Positions 2,824-35,711 of a stretch of 64,000 bases of DNA are shown one piece after another. This DNA comes from a virus, in IMG/VR virus record IMGVR_UViG_3300046170_000470. One strand, written 5' to 3'. Below the pieces are notes generated by a model. That model searched no databases and was not told where the DNA came from. It saw only the letters and a list, made by a program, of their open reading frames with translations. The translations under genes and the position numbers were made by a program. The first letter of the stretch is position 1; the number at the start of each line of letters is the position of its first letter.

Positions 2824-3701
2824 TGCCTAACTTTAAACCATATCCAAAAAAACAAGTAGAGATTAGTAAAGGATTGCAAACAGCATTTGATACTAAAAGG
2901 GGAAATCCTAATAAAGAAATAAACCCTAATAAATCTCAAACGGGAATTGAGTTCAATAGATCAGCTAAAATAAGTCAAAAAGGTGAAACATCAAAAACTT
3001 ATTCTGTAGGTATTAAAGATATTGATGAAGCTGTTTTTTATTATTTTAATAATGTAATTCAACCTTTTGTATTCCAAAATGGAGAAAGAAGAGCAGTACC
3101 CATAATATATGGTAATCCTGAAAGGTGGAAATCATATCAAAGGGATGGTTATTATAGAGATAAAGGTGGGTCTGTAATGTTACCTATTATAGTAATTAAA
3201 AGGAATACTATTGCAAAAGATAGAAGTACATACAATAAATTAGATTCTAATTCCCCTAATTTATATGGTACCTTCCAAAAGGATTTCAACCCAAAAAATA
3301 TATATAATAATTTTAATTTACTAAATAATAGAGTTCCTACTAAACAATTTAATACTGTAGTAGTCCCTGATTATCTAGATATTACATATAGTTGTATTGT
3401 TCAAACTTATTATATGGAACAACTAAATAAAATAATTGAATCAGTAGAATACGCTTCAGATTCATATTGGGGTAACCCTGAAAGATTTAAATTTAATGCT
3501 AGAGTAAATTCCTTTTCTACTGCTGCTGAAATTACTGCAGGTCAGGATAGATTAGTTAAAAGTAATTTTGATATTAACTTAAGGGGTTATATCGTACCCG
3601 ATGTAATGCAAAAAGATTTAAATGCAATTAAAAAATTAAATTCTAAATCTAAAATTACAATTTCAACAGAAACTACAGGAAATATTAATGATATTCCGTG
3701 A
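2823..3701 (+). CDS. Tail sheath stabiliser/terminator, gp15-like
   Basis: VPIIYGNPERW and LPII motifs; synteny. Confidence 0.6.
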   Translation: MPNFKPYPKKQVEISKGLQTAFDTKRGNPNKEINPNKSQTGIEFNRSAKISQKGETSKTYSVGIKDIDEAVFYYFNNVIQPFVFQNGERRAVPIIYGNPERWKSYQRDGYYRDKGGSVMLPIIVIKRNTIAKDRSTYNKLDSNSPNLYGTFQKDFNPKNIYNNFNLLNNRVPTKQFNTVVVPDYLDITYSCIVQTYYMEQLNKIIESVEYASDSYWGNPERFKFNARVNSFSTAAEITAGQDRLVKSNFDINLRGYIVPDVMQKDLNAIKKLNSKSKITISTETTGNINDIP

Positions 3702-3734
3702 TAATTTAAATTAAAGTTTTTATATTATAGTTTA

Positions 3735-4817
3735 ATGAAAGTTTTATTTATAGCACCACATTTAAGTACAGGGGGAATGCCAGCATTCCTACTAAAACGT
3801 ATTCAAGCACTACAGCAATATACGGATTGGGAGATCCATGTTATAGAATGGAAAAACCTAAGCCCCGACTATATTGTCCAAAAAACACAAATCCAAAAAT
3901 TAGTAGGAGATAACTTTACTTCCTATAATGGGGATTTAGAACAACAAAAAGGTATTGTAGATTATTGTAAAAAAAATAAAATAGATATAATTCATATTGA
4001 AGAGATCCCAGAAGGGTTTGACGGTGGAAATGAATTTAATATTGATATTCAAAAAGAATTATATAAGAAAAAACATCCGTGGAAAGTAGTTGAGACTTGT
4101 CACAATATTTTCTTTAATCCTGATGAAAGTAAAGTTTATGAACCTGATGGGTATGCATGCGTAACGCCTCATCATATTGATACAACTTTTAAAAATAAAA
4201 AAACACCAAAGTCACTAATAACTTTCCCAATTGACCCATCTATCTCTCCTTATGAATCTAAAGAAGAAATATTATCATCTAGAGGATGGTTAACTAAAGG
4301 TGAATTCCATATTGTAAACGTAGGACTATGGACTCCAGGTAAAAATCAGGGGTATGCTGTAAAATTAGCCAAACAATTATGGGAAAAATATCGTTGGACT
4401 TATATTTTTCATTTTGTAGGAAATCAAGCACCTAACTTCTCTCATTATTGGGAACCTATAATGGAGGAAGGTTTACCCCCTAATGTGTTTATTCATGGTG
4501 AACAAGCAGATACTGATTATTATATGAAAATGTCAGATTTAATGTTATTTACTTCAACTTGGGAATGTAATCCTATTGTTTTAAAAGAAGCTATTTCTAA
4601 TAATATTAAAATAATGGCTTTTGATTTAGACCATTATGGAGAAGAATATGTCCCATTTATTATCCCATTAACAGGAAACCAAAATACCGATTACACCAAT
4701 TTAATAGATACCATCCATTCCCCACTTAAATATAATGACTATGATATTGGAAACAATGTTCGTAATTTTGCTAAAAACCATATTAATTTTTATAATTCTT
4801 TATTAGATGAAAAATAA
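3735..4817 (+). CDS. GT-B (GT4-like) glycosyltransferase
   Basis: PHLSTGGMP N-terminus; KNQG and FTSTWECNPIVLKEA (E-x7-E) motifs. Confidence 0.8.
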   Translation: MKVLFIAPHLSTGGMPAFLLKRIQALQQYTDWEIHVIEWKNLSPDYIVQKTQIQKLVGDNFTSYNGDLEQQKGIVDYCKKNKIDIIHIEEIPEGFDGGNEFNIDIQKELYKKKHPWKVVETCHNIFFNPDESKVYEPDGYACVTPHHIDTTFKNKKTPKSLITFPIDPSISPYESKEEILSSRGWLTKGEFHIVNVGLWTPGKNQGYAVKLAKQLWEKYRWTYIFHFVGNQAPNFSHYWEPIMEEGLPPNVFIHGEQADTDYYMKMSDLMLFTSTWECNPIVLKEAISNNIKIMAFDLDHYGEEYVPFIIPLTGNQNTDYTNLIDTIHSPLKYNDYDIGNNVRNFAKNHINFYNSLLDEK

Positions 4818-5895
4818 AATAGAGATTTCTTTTAACTATGGCCCTAAAGTTGAAGTAATAGGAAATAAAAAAAAAGATTATTTTGTAGAATTTATTAATT
4901 CTGAAAGTAATAAAGTAGAATTTTCCTCTACTATAGAAAATAATATGTGGACTAAATGTTCTAAAAGATGGTATATTCCTTGGGATATTAAAGTTAATGG
5001 TAAAATTGTACATAAGTGGGATATAAAAGATAAACATATTAAAATTGTATTAGATTCTAAATCTATAGGAGATACACTAGCATGGGCCCCCCAAGCAGTT
5101 GAATTTGCCCGAAGGTATAATTGTAAAGTTACTCTATCTACCTTTCATAATTCTTGGTTTAAAAATCTTTCAAATTATAAAAACATTAACTTTGTAGAAC
5201 CTAATACAAATGGAAAATATTATGCTTGCTATCAAATAGGATGGTATATCCTAGATGATAAATGGGATGAAGGAAACTATCACCCGACTAAACCAAATAC
5301 AATTCCTTTAATCCAGACTGCTACTGATATTTTAAATATACCTTATAAAGAAGTAAATTATGGTGTTGATTTTACCCCTGGTAAAAAACCTATTAAATCT
5401 AAATACATATGTATCGCTCCCCATTCCACATCAGGTTTAAAAGAATGGCCATACAACTATTGGGAAGAATTAGCTAGAATGTTAAATAATAAAGGATATA
5501 AAGTAGTAGATATATCTTATGAGGACCATAATAAAAAAAACATAATAAATAAACCTAAATTATCGTGGAATAATACCTTTAATTATTTATACCATGCAGA
5601 ATATTTTATAGGGTTAGGTTCAGGTATATCTTGGTTTAATTGGGCTATGAATAAACCTACTTTAATGGTAAATAATTTTTTACCTTATGGGTATGAATTT
5701 ACTCAGGGTCTAACTAAAGTAGAAAATTATTCTGTATGTAACAATTGTTGGGTAAACAGTAATTACCAATTTGATAGGGGAAATTGGGAGTGGTGTCCTA
5801 AAAACGAAAATACCCCACTCCAACATATTTGCCAAAAATCTATCACACCTCAAAAAGTTTTTAATATTTTATCGAATCTATTAAAATTTAAATAA
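4807..5895 (+). CDS. Autotransporter O-heptosyltransferase-like protein (Aah/TibC family, GT9-like)
   Basis: SKSIGDTLAW, FIGLGSGISW..WA and Cys cluster VCNNCW...WCP...ICQKSI. Confidence 0.75.
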   Translation: MKNKIEISFNYGPKVEVIGNKKKDYFVEFINSESNKVEFSSTIENNMWTKCSKRWYIPWDIKVNGKIVHKWDIKDKHIKIVLDSKSIGDTLAWAPQAVEFARRYNCKVTLSTFHNSWFKNLSNYKNINFVEPNTNGKYYACYQIGWYILDDKWDEGNYHPTKPNTIPLIQTATDILNIPYKEVNYGVDFTPGKKPIKSKYICIAPHSTSGLKEWPYNYWEELARMLNNKGYKVVDISYEDHNKKNIINKPKLSWNNTFNYLYHAEYFIGLGSGISWFNWAMNKPTLMVNNFLPYGYEFTQGLTKVENYSVCNNCWVNSNYQFDRGNWEWCPKNENTPLQHICQKSITPQKVFNILSNLLKFK

Positions 5896-15341: not shown

Positions 15342-18300
15342 ATGAACGGAAATATAGTAGGAGAAGAATTTGAAAAATATGTATTTGATCAAATTGCCCA
15401 AAGGCAAAAAGACCAATACTCAGGTTATGACTCTCTTCGTACCCCTAAACAACTTCAATATTTAAATAATAAAAATGCTTGGGTTAAATTAGCCTCAGGT
15501 GTCTCAATAATCCAAGAATTAGATGAAAATAATAAAACTATACTTTATGACGGTATAGAAAGACTAAGAGATATTGTTGGTGCTGATCTTGCTGACGATT
15601 TTAAAGGAATAGAATTAGCTAAAAAAACCGTATTATTTAATGGCTTAAGTGAAACTGAACCTGCTACTTATAAAAACGAAAAAAAAGTTGAAAAAACAGC
15701 TGAATATAATTTTAGATCAGGGTATAATAATACTCAAAATATATGGAATCTTTCTTCGGTATATGGGTTAGGTGGAACTGATTTTGGTCAACAACCAATG
15801 CCTGGGATTCAATCTGTAAATGTTAAGTCTTTAAATAGAGGTTCCATTAGAGAAGCAAATGTAACACTAAAAGCCTATAATAAATTTCAATTTGCTATAA
15901 TTGAATTACTTTATTTAAGATTAGGATTTACTATGATGCTTGAATGGGGGAATGATAAGTTTATTAATAATGAAGGAGAACTCAAACAAATGGGTAATAC
16001 TATTATTGAAGATTTATGGTTCCAAAACAATAGTTATACCCAACTTCAAATGATAAATGCTATAGAAAGATATAGGGGGGAATATTCTGGGAATTATGAT
16101 GGATTCTTTGGTAAAGTAGTTAACTTTACATGGACATTTGAAGCTGATGGGAGTTATAATATCGATTTAAAATTAATAACTGTGGGAGATGTAGTTGAAT
16201 CTTTACAAGCTAATATTCCTACAAAGTCTTATGAAGTTACTACTTTAAATGCCGAACTAGAAAAAAATGAAATTTATAAAAATATTGGAGATTCTCCGAT
16301 ATCTAATGCTGCTAAAAGTAGCAAAATAGGTAAATATTTATTTGATAGTATAGGTAGGGAAAACTTATGGAATGGTTCAAATCTTGAATACTTTTCACTA
16401 AAAAATTATTTAATTGACAATACTAGAAATAGTGTAACAAATTTTAAATTTGATAAGAAAATAAATGATAAATATAACTATTTTATAACCTTTGGTGAAT
16501 TTTTAAATTGGTTTAAATTAAATATTATTCCTAATGTTAAAACTGGAATATATTTTGATAAACAATTGGGAATAGAAACTGATGAGTTTTCAAACATAGT
16601 TTGTTATTACCCTAATCAAATCTCATTAGACCCTAGGGTTTGTATTTTTAAATACATTTTTGGAAGCTTAGGAGAAACTGAGGTTCGGTATAGTATAGAT
16701 GGAGTTAAAACCCCAATGTATTTAGAAAATTTAAAAGATTATGTAACTCCAAAAAATGATACTGTTTTATATGGTCGATTAATGAATTTATATCTAAATT
16801 ATGATTTTATTTCTAAGTGTTTAAATTCTAATACTAAAGATGGTAAATTATCTATATTTAAATTTTTCCAAAAAATATGTGATGGTATAAATTCTGCTTT
16901 AGGTGGAGTTAATAATATAGAACCTATTATAAAAAATGATAAAATTATTACCTTTATAGACCAAAACCCAATCCCAGGTTATTTAGAAACTTTAGAAGGA
17001 ATAAAAGATACTGTAGATTTAGAAATTTATGGGTATAACCAATCTTCTAAATCCTCTAACTTTGTCCAAGATATTTCTTTTAAAACTGAAATTACTCCCC
17101 AATTAGCATCTATGGTTAGTATAGGAACTACTGCAGGAGGAAGTTCTACAAAAAATGAAGAGGGGACTGCTTTTTCTTATTGGAATCAAGGATTACTTGA
17201 CAGATTTCAACCCAAAATAGAGGACCCAACGGATAAAGAAATAATACCTTTAACCCCAGAAGAAGAAAGAATAGAACAATTGATAGCAACTTACGCCTTT
17301 AAATCAACGTGGTATTTATTTGCTTCTAAAGATAATAGTGAAGAAGATAAATTTAAATCCTTTACAAAACTTAAGAACATAGATGGTGATAAATTTGAAA
17401 ACCCCAGAAGAAGACATAGCATAACCTCAGATTTAGTAAAAGGAAACTATTCAGTAAAAGAATTTATAAACTTAGCTTTGGAGCAATATGCTATAACTAA
17501 TTCTAAAAACGCTTTTACCCAAGATGAATTAGCTCAAGAAGAAAGCAGTAATTATGCTATATACTTAATAAATGCTTTTGGAGGTTCATCATCTGCAAAA
17601 GTTAGATATTTAGGAAAACGTGATGCTAATGGTAATAGAAAAGTTAAAGAAAAACCATTAGCTAGTATTTCATTTCAAAATTCTAAGTACACTTTATTTG
17701 ATGACAATTTTATATCTAAAGGGAAAAAAACTTATAAAGTTTACATGAATTCCATTTCATCAGCAATTTCTAAAGATGAAGATAAAAATAGAACCCCTTC
17801 TAGTCAAATAGGATTCATCCCCGTAGGATTTGGAATCAAACTTCAAGGATTATCTGGTATAAAAATCTATAATAAACTAAATATTAATAATACTTTTTTA
17901 CCTTCACAATACCCAAAGGCATTAAAGTTTTTAATTCAAAAAGTTAATCATAGTATCCAAGATAATAATTGGGTTACTAATTTAGACACATTATCAATTC
18001 CTAAAGTAAAACAGACTGATAAAGGAGATTTAACTAATTTTTTAAATGCAATACAACAAGTTCAAACTGGATTGTTACCCCTAGAAGATAGGGGCCCCCA
18101 AAACCAAAATATTACTGAAGAATTTAAAGTAACAGGCATAGCTAGTTCAATTGAGGGTATAATTTCTCAACTTAATGAAAATGCGAAATCTTCATTTAAA
18201 GCCTTCTTTAATGATTTGTCCACTAATTATAAAGGATATACAGCATTAATAAATTCTATAGGAAGAAGTATAGAAAAATCAATAGAATTAAAACAAGAAA

Positions 18301-18608
18301 ACCCTAAAAATGCCGACCCAGGAAGATCTAAACATAACTATTATGCTTCAATAGATATGAATATCATTACACCACAAGGAAAAACTTTAACGAAAGAAGG
18401 AATGAAACATGAATGGAAAAATCATGGTTTTAATACTTTAGCTGAAAAATATAATTTAATATGGGGAGGTAGTTTTTCTACTTATGAAGATTGTATACAT
18501 TTTGAATATACATTTAAAATAGATGATGCCGTAGCAAATGCAACCTCTAAATACGGCAGTGTAGAAAACATGAAAGGTGACAATGGAAAATATGTAAAAT
18601 TAACTTAA
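15342..18608 (+). CDS. Baseplate hub-like protein with C-terminal M15-family peptidoglycan endopeptidase
   Basis: Position after LysM gene; C-terminal GRSKHNY..SIDM...WGGSF..YEDCIHFEY zinc-peptidase motifs. Confidence 0.7.
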   Translation: MNGNIVGEEFEKYVFDQIAQRQKDQYSGYDSLRTPKQLQYLNNKNAWVKLASGVSIIQELDENNKTILYDGIERLRDIVGADLADDFKGIELAKKTVLFNGLSETEPATYKNEKKVEKTAEYNFRSGYNNTQNIWNLSSVYGLGGTDFGQQPMPGIQSVNVKSLNRGSIREANVTLKAYNKFQFAIIELLYLRLGFTMMLEWGNDKFINNEGELKQMGNTIIEDLWFQNNSYTQLQMINAIERYRGEYSGNYDGFFGKVVNFTWTFEADGSYNIDLKLITVGDVVESLQANIPTKSYEVTTLNAELEKNEIYKNIGDSPISNAAKSSKIGKYLFDSIGRENLWNGSNLEYFSLKNYLIDNTRNSVTNFKFDKKINDKYNYFITFGEFLNWFKLNIIPNVKTGIYFDKQLGIETDEFSNIVCYYPNQISLDPRVCIFKYIFGSLGETEVRYSIDGVKTPMYLENLKDYVTPKNDTVLYGRLMNLYLNYDFISKCLNSNTKDGKLSIFKFFQKICDGINSALGGVNNIEPIIKNDKIITFIDQNPIPGYLETLEGIKDTVDLEIYGYNQSSKSSNFVQDISFKTEITPQLASMVSIGTTAGGSSTKNEEGTAFSYWNQGLLDRFQPKIEDPTDKEIIPLTPEEERIEQLIATYAFKSTWYLFASKDNSEEDKFKSFTKLKNIDGDKFENPRRRHSITSDLVKGNYSVKEFINLALEQYAITNSKNAFTQDELAQEESSNYAIYLINAFGGSSSAKVRYLGKRDANGNRKVKEKPLASISFQNSKYTLFDDNFISKGKKTYKVYMNSISSAISKDEDKNRTPSSQIGFIPVGFGIKLQGLSGIKIYNKLNINNTFLPSQYPKALKFLIQKVNHSIQDNNWVTNLDTLSIPKVKQTDKGDLTNFLNAIQQVQTGLLPLEDRGPQNQNITEEFKVTGIASSIEGIISQLNENAKSSFKAFFNDLSTNYKGYTALINSIGRSIEKSIELKQENPKNADPGRSKHNYYASIDMNIITPQGKTLTKEGMKHEWKNHGFNTLAEKYNLIWGGSFSTYEDCIHFEYTFKIDDAVANATSKYGSVENMKGDNGKYVKLT

Positions 18609-25465: not shown

Positions 25466-26452
25466 ATGGCAAAAACATCATTATTGCAGGAAAGAGTGGT
25501 TTATAAACCCTTTGAGTACCCAGAAGCACATGACTATTGGATGAAACAACAACAAGCACATTGGTTACATACTGAAGTACCAATGATGTCTGATGTGAAT
25601 GATTGGAAACAAAACCTTTCAGAAACAGAAAAAAATATAATTGGTTCCATCCTTAAAGGGTTTGCTCAAACAGAAACTGTAGTAAATGATTATTGGTCAT
25701 CTTTGGTTACAAAATGGTTTAGAAAACCTGAAGTGATTAAAATGGCTGTTACATTTGGGGCATTTGAAACTATCCATGCTGAAGCATATTCTTTATTAAA
25801 TGAAGAATTAGGATTAGATGATTTTAGTGAATTCCTAGAAGATGAAGCTACAATGGCAAAAATAGAGGCATTAACTGAAGTAAGAGATTCTCACGATGGT
25901 ACTCCTAATTGGCATGAAAGAGCAAAATCATTAGCTATATTTTCAGCATTTACAGAAGGTGTAAATTTATTTTCTTCATTTGCTGTTTTACTTTCTTTTA
26001 AATTAGATAATAAACTCAAAGGAGTAGGACAAATTGTAGAATGGAGCATTAGAGATGAATCATTACATTCTGAAGCAGGATGTTGGCTATTTAGAACACT
26101 ACTAAAAGAACACCCAGAATTTGACACCCCAGAATTAAGAGCTGATATTGAAGAAGCAGCCAAATTATCTTTAAAATTAGAATTAGATTTTATTGATACA
26201 GTTTATGAAATGGGAGATTTAAAAGGGTGTCCAAAATATGATCTAGTATCTTTTATTAAACATAGAGTAAATACTAAAATGAGCGATTTAGGTTATGGAG
26301 CGATAGTAAATGGTATAGATCAAGATGCAGTAAAAAGAATGAAATGGTTTGATAATTTATCAGGTGGTAAACAACACACAGATTTCTTTGCAAACAGAGT
26401 AACAAATTATAGTAAAGGAGTTCAGAATTGGGACGCAAACAGTTTATTTTAA
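25466..26452 (+). CDS. nrdB: Ribonucleotide reductase class Ia beta subunit
   Basis: ETIHAEAY, EGVNLFSSF, RDESLH and TDFFANRVTNY motifs. Confidence 0.95.
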   Translation: MAKTSLLQERVVYKPFEYPEAHDYWMKQQQAHWLHTEVPMMSDVNDWKQNLSETEKNIIGSILKGFAQTETVVNDYWSSLVTKWFRKPEVIKMAVTFGAFETIHAEAYSLLNEELGLDDFSEFLEDEATMAKIEALTEVRDSHDGTPNWHERAKSLAIFSAFTEGVNLFSSFAVLLSFKLDNKLKGVGQIVEWSIRDESLHSEAGCWLFRTLLKEHPEFDTPELRADIEEAAKLSLKLELDFIDTVYEMGDLKGCPKYDLVSFIKHRVNTKMSDLGYGAIVNGIDQDAVKRMKWFDNLSGGKQHTDFFANRVTNYSKGVQNWDANSLF

Positions 26453-26455
26453 AAT

Positions 26456-28174
26456 ATGGAAAACAACGCATTACAAGCAGATTATACAAATTGGGAAGCA
26501 GGTAAAAGACTATCCAGAATGGATGGATGAAATTTCTTTAGCAACAATTTCTAAGGGTTATTTATTACCTGGAGAAGATGTTAAAAAAGCTTATAGACGA
26601 GTTGCAAATGCAGCTGCTATGAGACTTAAAAAAACCAGAGCTATCTAATAAATTTTTTAAAATTATGTGGAATGGTTGGTTAGGGTTAGCATCACCTGTA
26701 TTATCAAATATGGGGACTGATCGTGGTTTACCTATTTCTTGTTTTGGTGTTGATACGCCCTGATTCAATACGTGGAATTGGTTTAACTAACGCAGAACTA
26801 ATGAAATTAACCGCCTCTGGTGGTGGTGTAGGTATATCACTATCTCGTATTAGAGAACGTGGAACAGGAATTACAGGAAATGGGAAATCTGAAGGTGTAG
26901 TTCCATGGGCTAAAATATTTGATTCTTCAATTATTGCTACTAACCAAGGAAATGTTAGAAGAGGAGCAGCATCTGTTAATTTAGATATAGAACATGGGGA
27001 TATAGAGGAATTCTTACAAATTCGTAGACCAAAGGGTGACCCAAATAGACAATGTTTAAATTTACACCAATGTGTTGTTGTAGGAGATTCATTTATGAGA
27101 AAACTAGAAGCAAGAGACCCTGAAGCAATGAATAGATGGGCTACTGTTTTAAAATCAAGAATGGAAACAGGTGAACCTTATATAATGTACAAGGACAATG
27201 TTAACAAGGATAACCCTATAGCTTATAGACTAAACAATTTAGAAGTATCTATGACTAATATTTGTTCTGAAATTACTTTATTTACAGATGAAGAACATTC
27301 ATTTATTTGTTGTTTATCTTCTATGAATTTATCAAAATACGAAGAATGGAAAGACACAGATGCTGTTGAATTAGCTACTTGGTTTTTAGATGGTGTAATG
27401 CAAGAATTTATTGATAAATCTGCTGGTAAAGATTCATTACAAAGAACTTATAACCATGCTCGTAAAGGACGTGCTTTAGGTTTAGGTGTAATGGGTTGGC
27501 ATTCATTCCTACAACAAAAAGGATTACCATTTAATTCAATTGCTTCTACAGCACATACCCATAATATATTTAATGATATTAGAGGTAAAGCAGAAAAAGC
27601 ATCTATGGCTTTAGCTCAAGAATATGGAGAACCTTTATGGTGTAGAGGAACAGGTATGAGAAATACCCACTTACTAGCAGTAGCCCCAACAGTATCTAAT
27701 TCAGTTATTTGTGGTGGGATTAGTGCTGGTATTGAACCCTTACCCGCTAACATTTATACATTTAATGGTGCAAAAGGTACTTTTATTAGAAAAAACAAAG
27801 TACTACAGTCTATTTTAGCTGAAAAAGGAGAAGATAAAGATAAATGGTGGGACCAAATGTTAGAACAAGATGGTTCAGCTCAAGGTTTACCAGATAATAT
27901 TTTATCTCCTGAAGAAAAAGAATTATTTTTAACTTTCCCTGAAATTAATCAATTAGAATTGGTACGTCAAGCAGCCATTAGACAACGTTATATTGATCAA
28001 ACCCAATCTTTAAATTTGTCATTTGATGTAAATGATTCACCAAAATGGATTAATCAAGTACATTTAGAAGGATGGAAGTTAGGTATTAAAACATTTTATT
28101 ATTTAAGAACTGACAGTGTAATTAAAGGAGATTTAGGTTCTCGTATGGCTGATTGTGTTAGCTGTGATGGGTAG
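26456..28174 (+). CDS. nrdA: Ribonucleotide reductase class Ia alpha subunit (three apparent 1-nt insertions near 26505, 26630 and 26759)
   Basis: Restored ASPVLSN.G..RGLPISCF; GGGVG, TNICSEI, APTVSNS, KTFYYLR and C-terminal CVSCDG. Confidence 0.92.
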
Positions 28175-28198
28175 TAATCCTAAATATTTTTATTTTAA

Positions 28199-28225
28199 GA
28201 GAGCGCAATAGCGCTCTTTTTTCTT
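28199..28225 (+). terminator. Terminator after nrdA
   Basis: GAGAGCGC-AATA-GCGCTCT followed by T-tract. Confidence 0.85.
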
Positions 28226-28248
28226 ATATGTATTATTGAAGTATAATC

Positions 28249-28271
28249 GAATATGGGCGGCAACCCTATTC
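28249..28271 (+). promoter_or_regulatory. Leader hairpin with CGGCAA loop (copy 1)
   Basis: GAATA(T)GGG-CGGCAA-CCCTATTC. Confidence 0.6.
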
Positions 28272-28319
28272 AATTCTAAAGTTTTTACAAACGTTTTTTT
28301 ATTAACGAAAAAGTTGAAT

Positions 28320-28793
28320 ATGAGATCAATATGTTTCATTTTTGCCTTAATATTAGGCATCAATGCGTATAGTCAAGAAACTATACACATACAAGAAGTT
28401 ACCAATAACATAGTTATGGGGCCATTTGCAGGTAACCGTAACCTGGCTTTTGGTGTACAAAATATCTTAGAAGAAATTATTCAAGATAAAGACTATTATT
28501 TAGATGATAATTCACCAAGAAATATTAAAGTCGAACTACTATACTTTGACGTAAAGAAAAATAACATGCAATTGGCGGCATATGGGCGTAAAGTCGATAT
28601 TACCCAAATTATTGCAGGTGCAAGGTTAATAGTAGATGGAAAAGTAGTAAAAGAAGTAATTGCTAAAGGAACTTCTAAGTCTATTTCAACATCTACTTTA
28701 ATTATAGATGATGGAGGAAAATTTTCTCAAGCTGGTGTATCCTCTGCACTTAAAAAAGTTTGTGAACAACTTATAAATAAATTAAAATTATAA
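28320..28793 (+). CDS. Exported CsgG/FlgO-superfamily-like protein (short paralogue)
   Basis: Probable start ATG 28320 gives signal peptide MRSICFIFALILGINAYS|Q; shares NLAFGVQNILEE and KFSQAGVSSALKK with 31482 (RVGLGLTNI, KFNQSSIGTSTKK). Confidence 0.55.
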   Translation: MRSICFIFALILGINAYSQETIHIQEVTNNIVMGPFAGNRNLAFGVQNILEEIIQDKDYYLDDNSPRNIKVELLYFDVKKNNMQLAAYGRKVDITQIIAGARLIVDGKVVKEVIAKGTSKSISTSTLIIDDGGKFSQAGVSSALKKVCEQLINKLKL

Positions 28794-30487
28794 TGAAAAA
28801 ACTATTATTTTTATTACTTTTACCTTTTGGGCTACTAGCTCAACAAGGTTATTTAAGCCATAGCTACATTGATGGTGATTCAAATGGATTTGTAGTTGGG
28901 CAAGAGATCACTGTTAAGTTTGAAGGTTTACAAGGCAGTGGAATGACACCTGATCGTGTTCATTTCGACTTTGAATGGAACAACAAGCTTCTAGAGTATG
29001 TTTCACATACCTTTAACCCAACCTCAGGTTTACCCTCTGATGCTCAAAATTCATGGACAATGTGGAACGGGTATAGATTTAATCCCCTTACTTTTTATGC
29101 CGGGGTAGCAGTTGCCGAATCAGATTTAGATCTACAGTATGATCAAGGATGGTTAAATAGAGGAGAAGGATCTTATTCTACAGTTTCAGATTGGTCAGTT
29201 GCAAGAGTAATTATACAATCCTCTTCTGATTTACCTTTATCTACAGAATGGATTTATGTTAAATTTAAAATTAAAGATAGACAGGGAACCGGATATGATA
29301 ACTACAATAACGTTACAGATCTAAACTTTGCTGGCTTTGAAGACATAAGCACAAGCTCAGGATTATATGATGTAAATGCTGGTACAGAAAATATTTCGTT
29401 AGCTAATGTAAGTGGAGTAAATGCAGGTAATGTTACTATTAATTTAAATTCTGCTGCTAAATCTCAATATGCTACTGACTTTACTTATGCTATTTATACT
29501 GCTGATGGGGTAAATGGTAGAACAGGAAATGCAATTGAAACAGGTAATTTTGATGCAAACGGTCAGGTAATTACCAGTAACCTAATTGTAGATGAAAAAT
29601 ATTATGTAGAAATAAAAGTAAGTGACCAAGCCACTTGGTTAGATGATGTATTAACTATTACAGATGCTTTTATTATATTTAAACAAGGTAATGCTACTGG
29701 AGCAAGTGGACCTGGGGATACATCTTCTCAAAACACATTCGATTATTCTCTACAGTATCTTATAGGAGAATTAAACAATTCAGGAAACATTACCCCTGCA
29801 GATGCTTATCAAGCTTTAGGTCATGTGCAAGGAGTAGAAGGTTTAAGTGAATGGTTTACTAATTCAACCAATGGGTCTAAAAATGTATGGGGGAGAGTAG
29901 AGCAATTAGGTGTATCAACTAATGATTATTATTTCGGACAAAAATATATTATTGAACCTACAGATGCTGTTAAATCATTTAACTTTGGTCATGCTTTAAT
30001 TGGTGATGTAGATTTCTCACATGGGTATGCTCCTACAGCTGAAGGAAGCTCTTTTTCAACTACTTCTCAAGCACAATCAAGAATGAGTGTAACATCAAGA
30101 GCATTAAGCCAAGCAGTTGAAAGTAATTTAGATGTTGTTTCTGAATTAATAGATGGTAAAGTACACTTTACTATTAATTTACAAGAAGAAGGAGTAGTAG
30201 GTACTCAATTTAATATAAATTATGATGATACTATTTTAACTTTAGATAATGTAATTTTTGATACTGGAAATACAATGACAAATTTTGCAAATCATAAACA
30301 GCAACAAGCTAAAGTAAATATAGGGTCTTTAGACCAATCAGGAGAAGTATCAATTAAAAAAGGGAATGCTTATAAATTAATATTTACTCCAAACGAAACA
30401 TTACAAAACACATCAGGATTAGTTACCTTTAAGTTAACTGAAGGAATTAAAGCTGATGGGCAAAAAGTTCAATTTATAATTCAATAA
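28793..30487 (+). CDS. Exported cohesin/dockerin-like domain protein
   Basis: Signal peptide ...GLLA|QQ; cohesin-like segments VGQEITVKF...FDFEWNNKLLEYVS and GTQFNINYDDTILTL; dockerin-like Ca loops DDVLTITDAF and GELNNSGNITPADAY. Confidence 0.6.
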   Translation: MKKLLFLLLLPFGLLAQQGYLSHSYIDGDSNGFVVGQEITVKFEGLQGSGMTPDRVHFDFEWNNKLLEYVSHTFNPTSGLPSDAQNSWTMWNGYRFNPLTFYAGVAVAESDLDLQYDQGWLNRGEGSYSTVSDWSVARVIIQSSSDLPLSTEWIYVKFKIKDRQGTGYDNYNNVTDLNFAGFEDISTSSGLYDVNAGTENISLANVSGVNAGNVTINLNSAAKSQYATDFTYAIYTADGVNGRTGNAIETGNFDANGQVITSNLIVDEKYYVEIKVSDQATWLDDVLTITDAFIIFKQGNATGASGPGDTSSQNTFDYSLQYLIGELNNSGNITPADAYQALGHVQGVEGLSEWFTNSTNGSKNVWGRVEQLGVSTNDYYFGQKYIIEPTDAVKSFNFGHALIGDVDFSHGYAPTAEGSSFSTTSQAQSRMSVTSRALSQAVESNLDVVSELIDGKVHFTINLQEEGVVGTQFNINYDDTILTLDNVIFDTGNTMTNFANHKQQQAKVNIGSLDQSGEVSIKKGNAYKLIFTPNETLQNTSGLVTFKLTEGIKADGQKVQFIIQ

Positions 30488-30490
30488 AAA

Positions 30491-30868
30491 ATGAAAAAAT
30501 TATTATCAATATTAGCATTACTTTTAGTATTAGGATGCACCCAAGATGAAGAGTTTATTATAATAGATGAAAACCAAGAAGTACCTGAAGCTTTATTTAT
30601 TGAAGACTTAGTGGGAATTAAATTATCTAGTTCTATTGTTTCTGATAGAGTAGCCATGAATGTTAAATTACCATCAGATGGAGATTATAGAGTAAAAATT
30701 AGACACAGTATGACTAATGAGTTAATTTCCCAAGAAAAACTTACAGGTAAAGAAGGAGACAATATTTTAAAAGTGTATGTTAATACTTTAGAAAATAGTT
30801 CATATAAGTTAGAATTAACTAAAGAAAATCATACAATAGTAGGAGTAACATTATTTTCAAAATTTTAA
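30491..30868 (+). CDS. Lipoprotein resembling a stand-alone T9SS C-terminal sorting domain
   Basis: Lipobox LVLG|C with acidic residues after Cys; YRVKI...GKEGDNILKVYVNTLENSSYKLEL resembles the Por-secretion tail pattern. Confidence 0.55.
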   Translation: MKKLLSILALLLVLGCTQDEEFIIIDENQEVPEALFIEDLVGIKLSSSIVSDRVAMNVKLPSDGDYRVKIRHSMTNELISQEKLTGKEGDNILKVYVNTLENSSYKLELTKENHTIVGVTLFSKF

Positions 30869-30871
30869 AAA

Positions 30872-31150
30872 ATGAGTGAAGAAAAAGGAGGATTTTTTAG
30901 CCAAATTAAAAATCAAATAATCACAACAATTGGTCTTATTATTACGGCTGCAGGTGGTTTAGTAATAACCAATATGGAAGCTATATTTGGTGTAGGTGAA
31001 GAAATAGTAGTAGAACAGCCTATGATGGAACAAACTATTAACTTTCCTGAAGCTACTAAAGATACCATAGTAATTTCTAAAACTATAGTAATTCCTCCTA
31101 AAAAAGAAAAAACCGAAACAGAAAAAAGAAAAGAAGAATTTGACTGGTAG
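30872..31150 (+). CDS. Single-pass membrane protein
   Basis: IITTIGLIITAAGGLVIT TM segment; charged tail ending in W. Confidence 0.7.
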   Translation: MSEEKGGFFSQIKNQIITTIGLIITAAGGLVITNMEAIFGVGEEIVVEQPMMEQTINFPEATKDTIVISKTIVIPPKKEKTETEKRKEEFDW

Positions 31151-31155
31151 AAACA

Positions 31156-31181
31156 AGAAACCAGGCGGCAACCTGGTTTCT
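31156..31181 (+). promoter_or_regulatory. Leader hairpin with CGGCAA loop (copy 2)
   Basis: AGAAACCAGG-CGGCAA-CCTGGTTTCT perfect 10-bp stem. Confidence 0.7.
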
Positions 31182-31359
31182 CTTATTCTGATGTCAAATT
31201 AAAATTGAATGAAGTATAACAGTTAAAATGACAACCATGAATTATTTATCACAACGTACAAAGAAATTGTGGCTAAGCCAAGCAATTCTTAGTATTCTTA
31301 GTTTTTACATATTAGAACAAGATGGTCTTATCAATAAAATAGTTGAAGTTATTGCAAAA

Positions 31360-31479
31360 ATGCTTGTAACTTTTTTATTTGTACTTGCAGTATCAGGTAT
31401 AACAAAATTAATTTTTGAATTGATAACTAACCCATCCCAATTTAGCAATGCTACTTTTGGTGTGTTTGACTATCTGTAA
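31360..31479 (+). CDS. Small hydrophobic protein (39 aa; start could be further upstream)
   Basis: MLVTFLFVLAVSGITKLIFELITNPSQFSNATFGVFDYL; ends 2 nt before the next gene. Confidence 0.5.
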   Translation: MLVTFLFVLAVSGITKLIFELITNPSQFSNATFGVFDYL

Positions 31480-31481
31480 AA

Positions 31482-32192
31482 ATGAAACATCTTATCGTAT
31501 TTTTACTTGGGCTAAATGTAGCATTTGGTCAAGTACTAGGCAAAACAACTACTGAAGATTATACAGCTGGATTTGAATCAAGAGAATCTATCTGGTCTAT
31601 TCCAGAATATAACGGAGACCCAGTTACTGTTGCTCTCCTTAATATTGGAGTTAGTGATGAAGTACTATCACAATACCCGGAACTAGGAGATTACCGTGTA
31701 GGGTTAGGTCTTACCAATATAACAGTAGCATTCTTAGATGAAACATTTAGATTTGAATTCGTTGAAACTAAAGACGAAATTAAAAATAGAATGGTTTCTC
31801 AATATAAAGCCTCCCAGAAAGGATTTACTGCAAACCAAATTAATATTAAAGGTAAGATTATGCTTGCTAAATATTTTTGTTATATAGAAGTATATGACTT
31901 TTCTATTTCGGAAGATGAAAATATTAGCTTAAAAGATGGAATTAAAAGTAACTTAGTTACTAGGTTAGGTCTTCAAGTTAAGATGGTCGATGCTGAAACA
32001 GGCCTGTACATGACAGGCTCAGGTTTAGGTAAAGCTACAACGACAAGAGAAATGACTCTATTAAATGATCAAAATTTAGAAGAAATCAAATTCAACCAGT
32101 CTTCAATTGGTACATCAACCAAGAAAGCTTTAGAAACAGCAGTAGCTAAAGTAGTAAAAAGAATGATACGTAAACGTATCTTTGACCATTAA
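31482..32192 (+). CDS. Exported CsgG/HfaB-family-like protein
   Basis: Signal peptide ...VAFG|Q; RFEFVE, IEVYDFS and RLGLQVKMVDAETG....GSGLG typical of the CsgG fold. Confidence 0.7.
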   Translation: MKHLIVFLLGLNVAFGQVLGKTTTEDYTAGFESRESIWSIPEYNGDPVTVALLNIGVSDEVLSQYPELGDYRVGLGLTNITVAFLDETFRFEFVETKDEIKNRMVSQYKASQKGFTANQINIKGKIMLAKYFCYIEVYDFSISEDENISLKDGIKSNLVTRLGLQVKMVDAETGLYMTGSGLGKATTTREMTLLNDQNLEEIKFNQSSIGTSTKKALETAVAKVVKRMIRKRIFDH

Positions 32193-32195
32193 AAT

Positions 32196-33810
32196 GTGCG
32201 AAAACTACTCTACATATTATTTCTATTTGTCTGTTTTAAATCTATAGGACAAACACAAACTATATCTCAAACTTTTGTAGACAGATGTACTGGTGAAACC
32301 ACAATAGCAACAGCTAACTTTGTAAATGGTTCAGCTGTAGTAGCATTTTACAGTAGAGTAAAAACTTTCACTTGGGCAGAATATACAAATGGAACTTTAG
32401 AGGCATGGCTTAATGAAACTTATGCCTGGTGGTCAAATTTAAGCCCATGTTCTACCAATACAGCAACAAACCAAACAACACAGCAGACAACTACTAACGC
32501 TACTTCTAGTGCTACAAACGCTGCTACTAATGCTGCTAGTACTACAGGAGGAACAACAAATACAACAACAGGGACAGCATCTACTAACACAGGTTCGACT
32601 TCAACAGGATCTACCAATACGTCTAATGGTAACACAAATACAGGAAATGGTTCAACAAATTCAAATTCTTCATCTTCAAGCTCATCGTCTGGTTCTTCGG
32701 ATTCATCTAATAGCTCTTCGTCTGGTAATGATTCCACTGGGGGTGGAGATGACCAATCTAATAATTCGTCAAGCGGATCAGAAGGAGATTCGGGAGGTGA
32801 AAGCGAAAATACTAGCAGCGGAGGCGAAAGTGAAGGAGATACTTCTAATGATTCAAAGGAAGACACTTCAGATACAAATAGTGAAGAATCCACCGAAGAA
32901 GAAAGTAGCACTGAATCAGAAAGCTCAGAAGATAGTGAAAGTGAAGAATCTGAGTCTGAAGAAGTAGAAGAGGAATCTTCAGAGGAATCAGAAGAAGAAA
33001 GTTCTGAGGAAGAAAGTTCTGAGGAAGAAGAAAAAGAGGAGAAGAAAGAAGAAAAGAAAAAACGTAACCCCATAGCAGTAGCTGCTAATATAATGACCCA
33101 ATCTGGTCTAGATGGAAGATTAACCCAAGCAGCTAGTTTTGGATTTTCACAATCTTCACTTACAGGTACTACTACTTATTCTGCTAATGCTATGATCTGG
33201 GATAACCTAAAACAATTTAGTTTAAGTTTATCTAAATCTGATGTATATTTCAATTATGATAGAGAAGAAAAATTATTTCTCTATAACCCAGAAACAAATA
33301 AAGAAGATTTGTATTTTGGTTCTACTTACGGTAAGAGGAAGTATAATGGTGATACAATCTGTTAGTGCTAACTTTATGTATATATACGGTACTAAAGTAG
33401 CATCGTTTGGTTTGTCAAACGTATACTTAGGTCAAAAAGAAAACTTCTGGAAAGGATTCGTAGGTGGGTATGCTCTCTCTGGTACTATAATAAATGTAGA
33501 CGATACTGTAATGATAATGCCCTCTGGTGTATTATTTGGGACAAAACCATTTCCAACTAAAAGAGTTACTATTTCTCCAATGCTCGCTCTAGCATTCAAT
33601 CCAGTATCTTACACTTTTAATACTAAAGAAAAAACATTAAAAGGAGATTTAGCATGGAACGAACATATAACTTATATAGTAGGATCAAACTTTGATGTGG
33701 GACTCACACAGAGATTTAGATTTAATATTGGGGGTAATATAATAGGAACAACCCTTCCAGGAATTCCATTAACTTGGTCAGCAACTATTGGATCTAAATT
33801 TCAGTTTTAA
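32196..33810 (+). CDS. Exported stalked outer-membrane beta-barrel protein (one apparent insertion near 33333 splits ORFs 32196-33365 and 33241-33810)
   Basis: Signal peptide ...SIG|Q, two-Cys N-terminal domain, T/S/N then E/S low-complexity stalk, amphipathic beta-strands ending IGSKFQF. Confidence 0.65.
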
Positions 33811-33848
33811 TATGTATAATAGATAAAAAAATTGATGTTTCACTTAAA

Positions 33849-34112
33849 TTGTTATTTATGTTCAAAACTTTAAAACGTAAATGGATGGCTTTTAAAAATA
33901 TTTTTAAAGACGATAATGATATTAATGAAAAATCAGTAGTTGGGTTTGCTTCTTTTGCAGTAATGGTAATTTTTGCAATTGCAGATATCGTAACAGGATT
34001 TTTTGGAAAAGATTTAGTAATACAAGAATTTATATACGATTCATTCTTATTTATCACACTAGGATGTTTTGGAATTGCTGAGGCAGGTAAAATTTTTGGA
34101 AAAAAAGAATAA
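33849..34112 (+). CDS. Two-TM membrane protein, holin-like
   Basis: Two hydrophobic segments; first gene of the lysis cassette. Confidence 0.5.
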   Translation: MLFMFKTLKRKWMAFKNIFKDDNDINEKSVVGFASFAVMVIFAIADIVTGFFGKDLVIQEFIYDSFLFITLGCFGIAEAGKIFGKKE

Positions 34113-34113
34113 T

Positions 34114-34302
34114 ATGAAAAAAAAGATAATATCTATATTATTTTGTGTAATGCTTTTACTACCAAGTTGTGCATCATCTAAGCCTGCAAATGTAAAAATA
34201 GAAGAACCCAGAGAACAAGTTAGTGGAGAACATGACCCAATCATGAAATTATTACTTTCAGGTCTTATTATATTATCCCTTAATTTTCTTGTTACAAAAT
34301 AA
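34114..34302 (+). CDS. Lipoprotein with C-terminal TM segment (unimolecular-spanin-like topology)
   Basis: MKKKIISILFCVMLLLPS|C...LLLSGLIILSLNFLVTK; adjacent to endolysin candidate. Confidence 0.45.
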   Translation: MKKKIISILFCVMLLLPSCASSKPANVKIEEPREQVSGEHDPIMKLLLSGLIILSLNFLVTK

Positions 34303-35372: not shown

Positions 35373-35711
35373 ATGTATAGATACAACGCAAAATTAGACC
35401 GAGTTGTTGACGGAGATACTGTCGATGCTTTAGTAGACTTAGGATTTGATACTTGGAAAAAAGTAAGAGTTCGAATGATGGGGATGAATGCTCCTGAATC
35501 CCGCACACGAGATTTAGAAGAAAAAAAACGTGGACTAGCTGCTAAAGCAAGATTAATTAAATTATTAGAAGAGGGGGATTTTATTTTACAATCCCATGGG
35601 GTTGGAAAATATGGTAGATGTTTAGGGACTATATTTGTAAAAGATGTAGATGTAAATAAAACTTTAATTAATGAAGGACACGCAACAGAATACTTTGGGG
35701 GTGCTAGGTAA
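35373..35711 (+). CDS. Thermonuclease (SNase-like)
   Basis: RVVDGDT, RVRMMGMNAPE, GKYGRCLG and N..LINEGHA motifs. Confidence 0.88.
   Translation: MYRYNAKLDRVVDGDTVDALVDLGFDTWKKVRVRMMGMNAPESRTRDLEEKKRGLAAKARLIKLLEEGDFILQSHGVGKYGRCLGTIFVKDVDVNKTLINEGHATEYFGGAR

Follow-up and report, generated by a model that had tools for sequence, protein, structure and literature searches.

Why should a phage keep, between its nrd genes and its lysis genes, a compact block of genes whose products are all addressed to the cell envelope, and what could such proteins do for it? The question is raised by a stretch of 64,000 nucleotides from the IMG/VR virus record IMGVR_UViG_3300046170_000470 (the window below means this whole stretch). 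It belongs to an uncultured phage with about 31% G+C and essentially all long open reading frames (ORFs) on the plus strand; we take the phage to be a lytic myophage of marine Bacteroidota. Seven tightly packed plus-strand genes, g1 to g7, form what we call the envelope module at 28320-33810, between nrdB/nrdA (25466-28174) and the lysis cassette. We are highly confident that the module products are envelope proteins at all. As to what they do, the reading we prefer, to which we give an even chance, is an envelope assembly with a surface-remodelling role late in infection.

A conserved set of exported proteins

An export or membrane signal is present in all seven products, be it a signal peptide with cleavage ahead of Gln, a lipobox or a transmembrane (TM) helix. 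A preliminary description of this DNA had regarded all of them as exported or membrane-bound, and this is borne out: four (g1, g2, g6 and g7) have Sec signal peptides followed by Gln, one (g3) has a lipobox, and two (g4 and g5) are TM proteins. The Sec cleavage sites, as read from the sequence, fall between NAYS and QE in g1, GLLA and QQ in g2, VAFG and QV in g6, and KSIG and QT in g7, and in the family alignments the Gln at +1 is invariant or nearly so in all four proteins. Signal peptides with such a conserved residue fit the Bacteroidetes Q-rule, according to which Gln follows the cleavage site (PMC5837995); exported proteins obeying the rule have already been noted in Bacteroidota phages (PMC10367356). 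The packing of the seven genes between the nrdA terminator and the lysis cassette was also described correctly, the gaps (-1 to 77 nucleotides) being -1, 3, 3, 77, 2 and 3 nucleotides from g1 to g7.

The order g1-g7 is kept in 35 IMG/VR contigs, and the co-occurrence of these genes in related phages, which had been supposed, is thereby observed; a DNA search of the module region against 50,697 phage records gave no match. The only cultured relatives are Flavobacterium phages vB_FspM_immuto (immuto below). Their g6 is 49% identical; behind their nrdB/nrdA genes come a cohesin protein (gp015), homologs of g4 (gp016) and g6 (gp017), a protein built like g7 (gp018) and one homologous to g1 (gp019). 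In the Tara Oceans contigs the g6 homolog is lipidated and has a g4 homolog beside it, and a g7-type gene lies two genes further downstream. Five further loci are found on contigs binned with Bacteroidota metagenome-assembled genomes (MAGs); in four MAG-contig loci that extend past g6, a protein of the g7 architecture is encoded directly 3' of it. The core g4-g6-g7, together with the gene g8 discussed below, recurs in immuto, in the Tara contigs and in the Bacteroidota MAG contigs. The hosts are Bacteroidota.

The CsgG-fold protein and the tethered barrel

The gene g6 (31482-32192, plus strand) encodes an exported protein of 236 residues without a lipobox. It is the most conserved of the seven module genes (mean column identity 81%; 68-99% identity among contigs), and on its modelled fold and by transitive homology its product belongs, as a divergent member, to the CsgG superfamily. 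Neither the window g6 nor 15 close relatives match Pfam CsgG (PF03783) even at E 10, and the g6 profile yields chance-level matches only among PDB sequences. The link is made through more distant proteins: when 1.84 billion representatives were searched with the profile, 271 relatives were recovered, and among 40 aligned profile-linked ones 20 match Pfam CsgG (best 1.9e-17) and 7 match LpoB. In fused forms the same domain has a caspase or Ser/Thr kinase domain as its neighbour, and the CsgG threshold is exceeded by some of these fusions; the protein collection contains 3866 g6 homologs.

The AF2 model of g6 (pLDDT 79.4) agrees with this assignment. CsgG is its top match in Foldseek (E 2e-6), so that the structure search for a CsgG fold, on which the preliminary description had staked its claim, came out in its favour. 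In VIA the top eight entries are CsgG without exception (Z 10.6-12.0, root-mean-square deviation (rmsd) 3.3-4.8 over 150-170 residues), and CT253, PelC, FlgT, LptE and TraT come after them. The sole match at E <= 0.001 in BFVD is a phage protein annotated CsgG, and in the ESM atlas viral clusters rank first, followed by bacterial CsgG/HfaB.

Two CsgG-like proteins had been proposed, g6 and g1. The proposal stands for g6 by its fold and does not stand for g1, which belongs with the YajG family; neither of the two matches Pfam CsgG directly. The gene g1 (28320-28793, plus strand) encodes an exported protein of 157 residues with a signal peptide and Gln at +1, similar to YajG/Lipoprotein_16 (PF03923). 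This family is matched by 17 of the 19 members of the g1 family (best 3.2e-6), the window g1 reaching 14.4 bits against a cut-off of 25. Comparison of g1 with the broad g6 family by hhalign gives E 8.7e-4 and a probability of 23% over 125 co-linear columns (10% with the close g6 family); g1 is possibly a shortened CsgG/LpoB-type fold. The g1 profile has chance-level matches only among PDB sequences, and in the protein atlas only viral clusters without an assigned function are found. That neither g1 nor g6 has a lipobox was noted rightly: in the alignments cleavage falls before an invariant Gln (Gln19 in g1, Gln17 in g6) and g6 has no lipobox Cys. More distant phage homologs of g6 carry an LxGC lipobox.

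A protein of the g6 type occurs in 4 of 301 Flavobacteriaceae genomes (two of these being phage-like contigs), and canonical CsgG occurs in 73 of the same 301. The g6 profile misses the canonical CsgG of these 73 genomes, and we rejected the idea that g6 is a recent capture of a host csgG.

Given the fold of g6, one may think of secretion of the curli kind (type VIII), in which an unfolded substrate encoded in the module, g2 or else the disordered stretch of g7, would leave through a g6 pore without recourse to the host type IX secretion system (T9SS); the extracellular matrix so exported would capture sibling host cells or shield against superinfection. There is a precedent, since the type VIII modules of pelagiphages are complete and their divergent CsgA/B genes at first went unnoticed (PMC9599517); nevertheless, none of the eight ORF products has a Pfam match to CsgF, CsgE or the curlin repeat (CsgA/B) at E <= 1, very divergent versions being possible. 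This agrees with the earlier statement that no curlin gene is present. The rarity of the g6 type among Flavobacteriaceae would mean that the phage brings its own, and g2 would need a route across the outer membrane while having no T9SS sorting domain, unlike its Tara counterpart. However, g6 is no simple substitute for the T9SS, since in the Tara phage a g6 homolog coexists with a cohesin protein that bears a T9SS sorting domain; moreover, g6 lacks a lipid anchor and has a charged hairpin, and g2, in contrast to curlin, has predicted folded beta domains (cohesin). We regard the export of a curli-like matrix as quite unlikely.

The second protein on which our reading leans is the product of g7 (32196-33810, plus strand). 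It consists of a signal peptide, an N domain of 85 residues, a variable linker and a C-terminal domain of 247 residues that ends in FQF. The N domain has two invariant Cys in the alignment, as expected for a domain outside the cytoplasm. The linker passes from T/S/N/G-rich through E-rich to K-rich and is about 100-370 residues long across the family. The C-terminal domain is predicted to be a barrel (model pLDDT 89), whose best structural matches are NalP (Z 21.1, 199 residues, rmsd 2.6), KdgM (20.7) and FapF (19.7); the autotransporter beta-domains EstA, EspP, AIDA-I, BrkA and Hbp give Z 17.8-19.3. From the model this is a 12-stranded outer-membrane barrel, the strand count being read after discounting two loop hairpins. 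The "stalked beta-barrel" of the preliminary description is therefore retained, with the correction that the gene is single in relatives and frameshifted in the window. Neither of the two window ORF products matches Pfam autotransporter at E <= 1. By BLASTP the g7 barrel is not linked to immuto gp018 or to the protein of 343 residues that follows the Tara g6 homolog; the N domain and the overall architecture are all that the three have in common.

In the window the reading frame of g7 is interrupted, which leaves two ORFs that overlap (32196-33365 and 33241-33810). Each of the 33 relatives with g7 has both parts in a single ORF, and alignment to L001, L002, L003 and L007 reveals one extra A at 33333/33334 in the window (GGTAAGAGG vs GGT-AGAGG). 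The 5' part of nrdA is likewise broken in the window, into 26523-26648 and 26723-28174, and three single-base insertions are seen there near 26508, 26625 and 26758 (vs L001, L010 and L003). Because the relatives have one g7 ORF and nrdA has three more insertions, both frameshifts are probably sequence or assembly errors; programmed frameshifting in g7 was considered and is unlikely on the same grounds.

Candidate binding parts, operon signals and the proposed role

If g6 and g7 form the constant machinery, which parts would face outwards? The first candidate is g2 (28793-30487, plus strand), which encodes an exported protein of 564 residues with a C-terminal cohesin (about 460-550) and a dockerin-like EF-hand loop (326-337). 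It is the most divergent module gene, with 23-95% identity among relatives; set against the range given above for g6, this is the pattern of a conserved machine with a variable binding part. The protein had been described as a cohesin-dockerin scaffold. Its cohesin half stands at the level of the family: Pfam Cohesin (PF00963) is matched by 17 of the 19 family members (best 4.2e-8), the window g2 itself falling short with 20.5 bits (cut-off 24.1; E 6e-4), and the family profile finds in the PDB only cellulosomal cohesins (E 1.4e-3) plus one type I dockerin (E 0.026, profile positions 271-330, the stretch for which a dockerin had been proposed). The dockerin half is a weak call, a type I dockerin having two EF-hand-like Ca loops in a duplicated segment of about 60 residues. 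Apart from that single PDB match, one of the 19 members matches Dockerin type I (PF00404) at E 0.11; one EF-hand-like loop, ELNNSGNITPAD, looks canonical and is matched in 6 of the 19 members, and the second loop is non-canonical. We also considered that g2 might hold two cohesins; the internal hidden Markov model test for an N-terminal copy was not significant.

The window g2 has no T9SS sorting domain, whereas its Tara counterpart has one. The latter, a phage protein of 646 residues (3556-5496 in the Tara contig L037), combines Cohesin with a TIGR04183 T9SS type A sorting domain (E 1.7e-8). It would be addressed to the type IX secretion system of the host and, standing next to a g6 homolog, it points to the cell surface. 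In immuto a C-type lectin protein is found at the module site besides the cohesin protein.

The second candidate is g3 (30491-30868, plus strand), a lipoprotein (invariant Cys16) whose single immunoglobulin-like (Ig-like) domain is akin to T9SS type A sorting domains. It had been called a T9SS-tail lipoprotein, and we keep this name for the family: 13 of its 18 members match PF18962 (best 1.3e-7), 12 of the 18 match DUF3244, and the lipobox Cys is invariant. The window g3 matches DUF3244 only (E 0.0044), with no match to PF18962 or TIGR04183. The domain makes up the entire mature protein behind the lipoprotein signal peptide and there is no cargo domain; since it is not the tail of a Sec/signal peptidase I cargo, it is unlikely to be a normal sorting signal. 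The mature N-terminus reads C-T-Q-D-E-E-F, and C-x-K/Q/R-D-D/E in the aligned relatives. With its acidic residues behind the lipidated Cys, this motif is similar to the signal by which Bacteroidota lipoproteins are exported to the cell surface (consensus from PMC5080379).

We infer the timing, the locations, the joint working of the parts and their function as follows. The operon would be transcribed late, and its products would cross by the host Sec pathway into the cell envelope. The g7 barrel would sit in the outer membrane with its disulfide-bonded N domain on the long, variable, acidic linker. The g6 protein, whose lipid anchor would have been lost in this clade, would oligomerise into a ring in the outer membrane or beneath it and be retained through g7 or through hairpins of its own; the small proteins g4, g5 and g8 would be partners in the inner membrane, and g1 a YajG-like periplasmic accessory. 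The export-signal lipoprotein g3 and the cohesin-type binder g2 would be the variable outward-facing parts. The job of the whole would be to bind or mask surface structures, that is, to promote adhesion to neighbouring cells or particles, or to provide exclusion and protection of the progeny. The preliminary description had offered superinfection exclusion or receptor masking, aggregation of infected cells with fresh hosts, grazing defence and help with outer-membrane disruption as possible roles. We would favour such surface remodelling over metabolism or virion assembly; binding or masking is preferred because of the T9SS-sorted cohesin protein of Tara, the lectin of immuto and the fast divergence of g2.

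A more specific form of this proposal has in our opinion a small chance of being right. The unlipidated g6 ring docked on g7, g4 and g8 would give the phage its own apparatus for export and display, with no need of the host T9SS; by means of it a self-associating adhesin of the cohesin/dockerin type, g2 with g3, would be displayed on the infected cell, to glue it to fresh hosts or particles or to mask receptors shortly before lysis.

The timing is suggested by the signals that surround the genes. The module is headed by a promoter-like motif, ATATGTATTA (ATATKTATWA; 28226-28235, plus strand), and the next copy (33810-33819, plus strand) opens the downstream unit. The window has 14 matches to the motif, all on the plus strand, vs 7.25 expected on both strands. 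Copies precede the tail sheath gene (6199), the tail tube gene (8517), a tape-measure-like gene (10498), the module (28226) and the lysis genes (33810); others lie upstream of the endonuclease VII and Hsp20 genes, and most copies stand just 5' of genes. It had been stated that the unit starts at the ATAT-type motif that precedes virion genes, and the tail sheath and tail tube copies agree with this. A motif of the TATxTAT type is retained upstream of g1 in most relatives. We consider ATATKTATWA a candidate late promoter of this phage group. The upstream boundary of the unit is a terminator-like hairpin after nrdA (28197-28220, plus strand; a 10-bp stem with 5 GC pairs, then a T run), and a hairpin with a T run is present at the equivalent place 3' of nrdA in relatives.

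The operon RNA also has two hairpins with the hexaloop CGGCAA, closed in both by GG/CC. The leader hairpin (28249-28271, plus strand) lies 62 nucleotides 5' of the g1 ATG; the second, with a 10-bp stem (31156-31181, plus strand), lies 62 nucleotides 5' of the g5 ATG and divides the unit into g1-g4 and g5-g7. The sequence GGCGGCAACC occurs at only two sites in the window, which are these two hairpins (0.28 expected at <=1 mismatch). In relatives the loop is retained and the stems vary compensatorily (CCAGG/CCTGG, CCAAG/CTTGG, CCCAA/TTGGG, CGACGG/CCATCG, AGTG/CACT, ATTG/CAAT), the loop being CUGCAA or CUGUAA in some. The hairpins are a candidate protein-binding or processing signal.

A promoter motif common to tail genes may equally suggest that the module encodes virion, tail-fibre or decoration components, and that the hydrophobic stretches at their N-termini do not act as signal peptides. 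The hypervariability of g2 resembles that of receptor-binding proteins, and cohesin, Ig-like and lectin domains are also found in phage fibres and decoration proteins. We hold this to be very improbable. The +1 Gln signal peptides are conserved in four proteins and the lipobox is invariant in a fifth; g7 has a predicted 12-stranded outer-membrane barrel with a C-terminal aromatic residue, and the CsgG fold of g6 is known from envelope lipoproteins. Besides, the module is sited between the nrd and lysis genes, apart from the tail block at 6-18 kb, and none of its products matches a PHROG structural family. Both the virion role and secretion of the curli kind are less likely than a surface or a lysis role.

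The lysis role concerns the small membrane proteins and the downstream neighbours. The gene g4 (30872-31150, plus strand) encodes 92 residues that end in a charged tail and, according to hydropathy, include a single TM helix (about 15-41); its homologs directly precede g6 homologs in immuto (gp016), in the Tara contigs L037 and L038 (E 5e-8) and in L044 (58% identity). The small membrane protein of 83 residues encoded by g5 (31228-31479, plus strand) has a strong TM segment at 38-56 and a weaker hydrophobic stretch, and is present in most relatives, not all. Further downstream, beyond the region covered by the preliminary description, g8 (33849-34112, plus strand) encodes a two-TM protein of 87 residues without a family match. 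It lies directly 3' of g7 in >20 loci and inside the module in L020 and L023, and in L044 it is 76% identical vs 46% for g6. As it travels with the module across loci, we count it as probably an eighth member.

Between g8 and g10 lies g9 (34114-34302, plus strand), which encodes 62 residues that include a lipobox (LLPSC) and, at the C-terminus, a TM helix; no family is matched, and the layout makes it a candidate unimolecular spanin. The next genes are g10, with an endolysin family match (PHROG E 5.5e-15), and g11, with a weak match to holin families. Two observations on the surroundings may be recorded here in their own right. A staphylococcal-nuclease-like protein (Pfam SNase, E 6.9e-12) is encoded at 35373-35711, directly after the holin-like gene; and a tail-block protein of 1088 residues (15342-18608) has a C-terminal endolysin-like region (PHROG 2649, E 1.4e-5), being probably a tail-associated lysin.

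The products of g4, g6, g7 and g8 could accordingly be viewed as a lysis accessory, an envelope-spanning device that times lysis or breaches the outer membrane, in the form of a gated outer-membrane channel or of a link between the inner and outer membranes that acts with the holin, endolysin and spanin-like genes. The module abuts g8, g9, g10 and g11, one promoter motif heads both units, g8 behaves as described above, and a lysis role has been proposed for the CsgG/CsgF genes of phage Melnitz (PMC9004378). The association is nevertheless loose in relatives: the endolysin and g11 are absent from the 8-kb flanks of many of those that keep the module, and the immuto endolysin is 7 kb away from it. 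A lysis device would have no need of a cohesin adhesin, of the immuto lectin or of the T9SS-sorted Tara protein; the fast divergence of g2 and g3 suggests the binding of variable ligands, and for the outer-membrane step g9 is already an ordinary candidate. We find a lysis accessory rather unlikely, albeit worth keeping in mind.

Returning to surface remodelling, several points weigh against it and should be stated together. The repeated linkage to g8 and to the holin and endolysin genes fits a lysis-related role equally well. The late timing is deduced from a sequence motif, and mutual binding of any of the seven proteins, the oligomerisation of g6 and its pore are conjectures. In the g6 model the single long hairpin (131-170) is amphipathic, yet the invariant E144 and E146 are on its apolar face, and a second hairpin (residues 192-207) is modelled at low confidence; both make a CsgG-like membrane insertion of g6 doubtful. 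Finally, the even strand number read from the g7 model would keep the N domain and linker periplasmic unless they are threaded through the barrel in the manner of an autotransporter.

We believe that the question deserves attention all the same. The module takes up about 9% of the window and a like share in many abundant uncultured Bacteroidota phages, as a conserved exported set with no known virion-making role for any of its proteins. If it alters adhesion, superinfection or lysis of marine Flavobacteriia, it would bear on particle attachment and carbon flow in algal blooms, and it would be a second, independent case, beside the curli modules of pelagiphages, of phages importing a CsgG-type envelope device. 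As immuto is cultivable and carries the core genes, the question is testable at the bench.

Comparison with known systems

Small envelope proteins that block receptors or entry are familiar from T5 (Llp) and the F plasmid (TraT). The present module resembles them as a product of a mobile element at the outer membrane, and TraT decamers distantly share the g6 fold (Z about 7). It differs in having 7-8 genes and an unlipidated g6, and the TraT match is far below the CsgG match.

With type Va autotransporters and FapF, g7 shares the order of N-terminal part, linker and C-terminal 12-stranded barrel, the last as predicted. Its "passenger", however, is a domain of 85 residues with two Cys plus a variable linker and not a beta-helix; the N-terminus of FapF stays periplasmic, and the KdgM/NanC porins score as well as autotransporters for the barrel. 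As regards T9SS cargo, the g3 family matches PF18962 and the Tara cohesin protein has a true C-terminal sorting domain; unlike such cargo, mature g3 has nothing but this domain after its lipoprotein signal, and the window g3 is below the threshold.

Compared with E. coli CsgG (PDB 4UV3, 4UV2, 6L7A), the modelled g6 has the periplasmic alpha/beta domain and the C-terminal helix, and, as read from the strand lengths of the model, an extended beta-hairpin in place of the first membrane hairpin. It differs in its identity of about 11-12%, in the lack of a lipobox, in the two invariant Glu and in the lack of the partners CsgE/F/A/B. CsgG itself has two amphipathic membrane hairpins, which build an oligomeric barrel, and its ring is nonameric.

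The closest systems are those of other phages. CsgG/CsgF modules are known from pelagimyophages, from the Methylophilales phage Melnitz and from HTVC023P-type pelagiphages, and the roles proposed for them, all unproven, are aggregation or "sibling capture", a superinfection shield and lysis timing (PMC7029224, PMC9004378, PMC9599517). The idea of a CsgG-type phage module without a host curli system is already published for pelagiphages and Melnitz. Like those, the present module belongs to a marine phage and includes a CsgG-fold envelope protein within a multi-gene exported set; the Melnitz module is also near lysis genes. The published modules have recognisable CsgG and CsgF close to alphaproteobacterial ones, to which CsgA/B, FecR and adenylate cyclase were later added, whereas here g6 has neither a Pfam CsgG match nor lipidation, and CsgF and curlin were not found. 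The partners in our case are a tethered barrel, 12-stranded in the model, a cohesin protein, a T9SS-tail-like lipoprotein and a YajG-like protein, and the hosts are Bacteroidota. Among phage CsgG modules it is a separate version, much further diverged than the published ones and with other partners.

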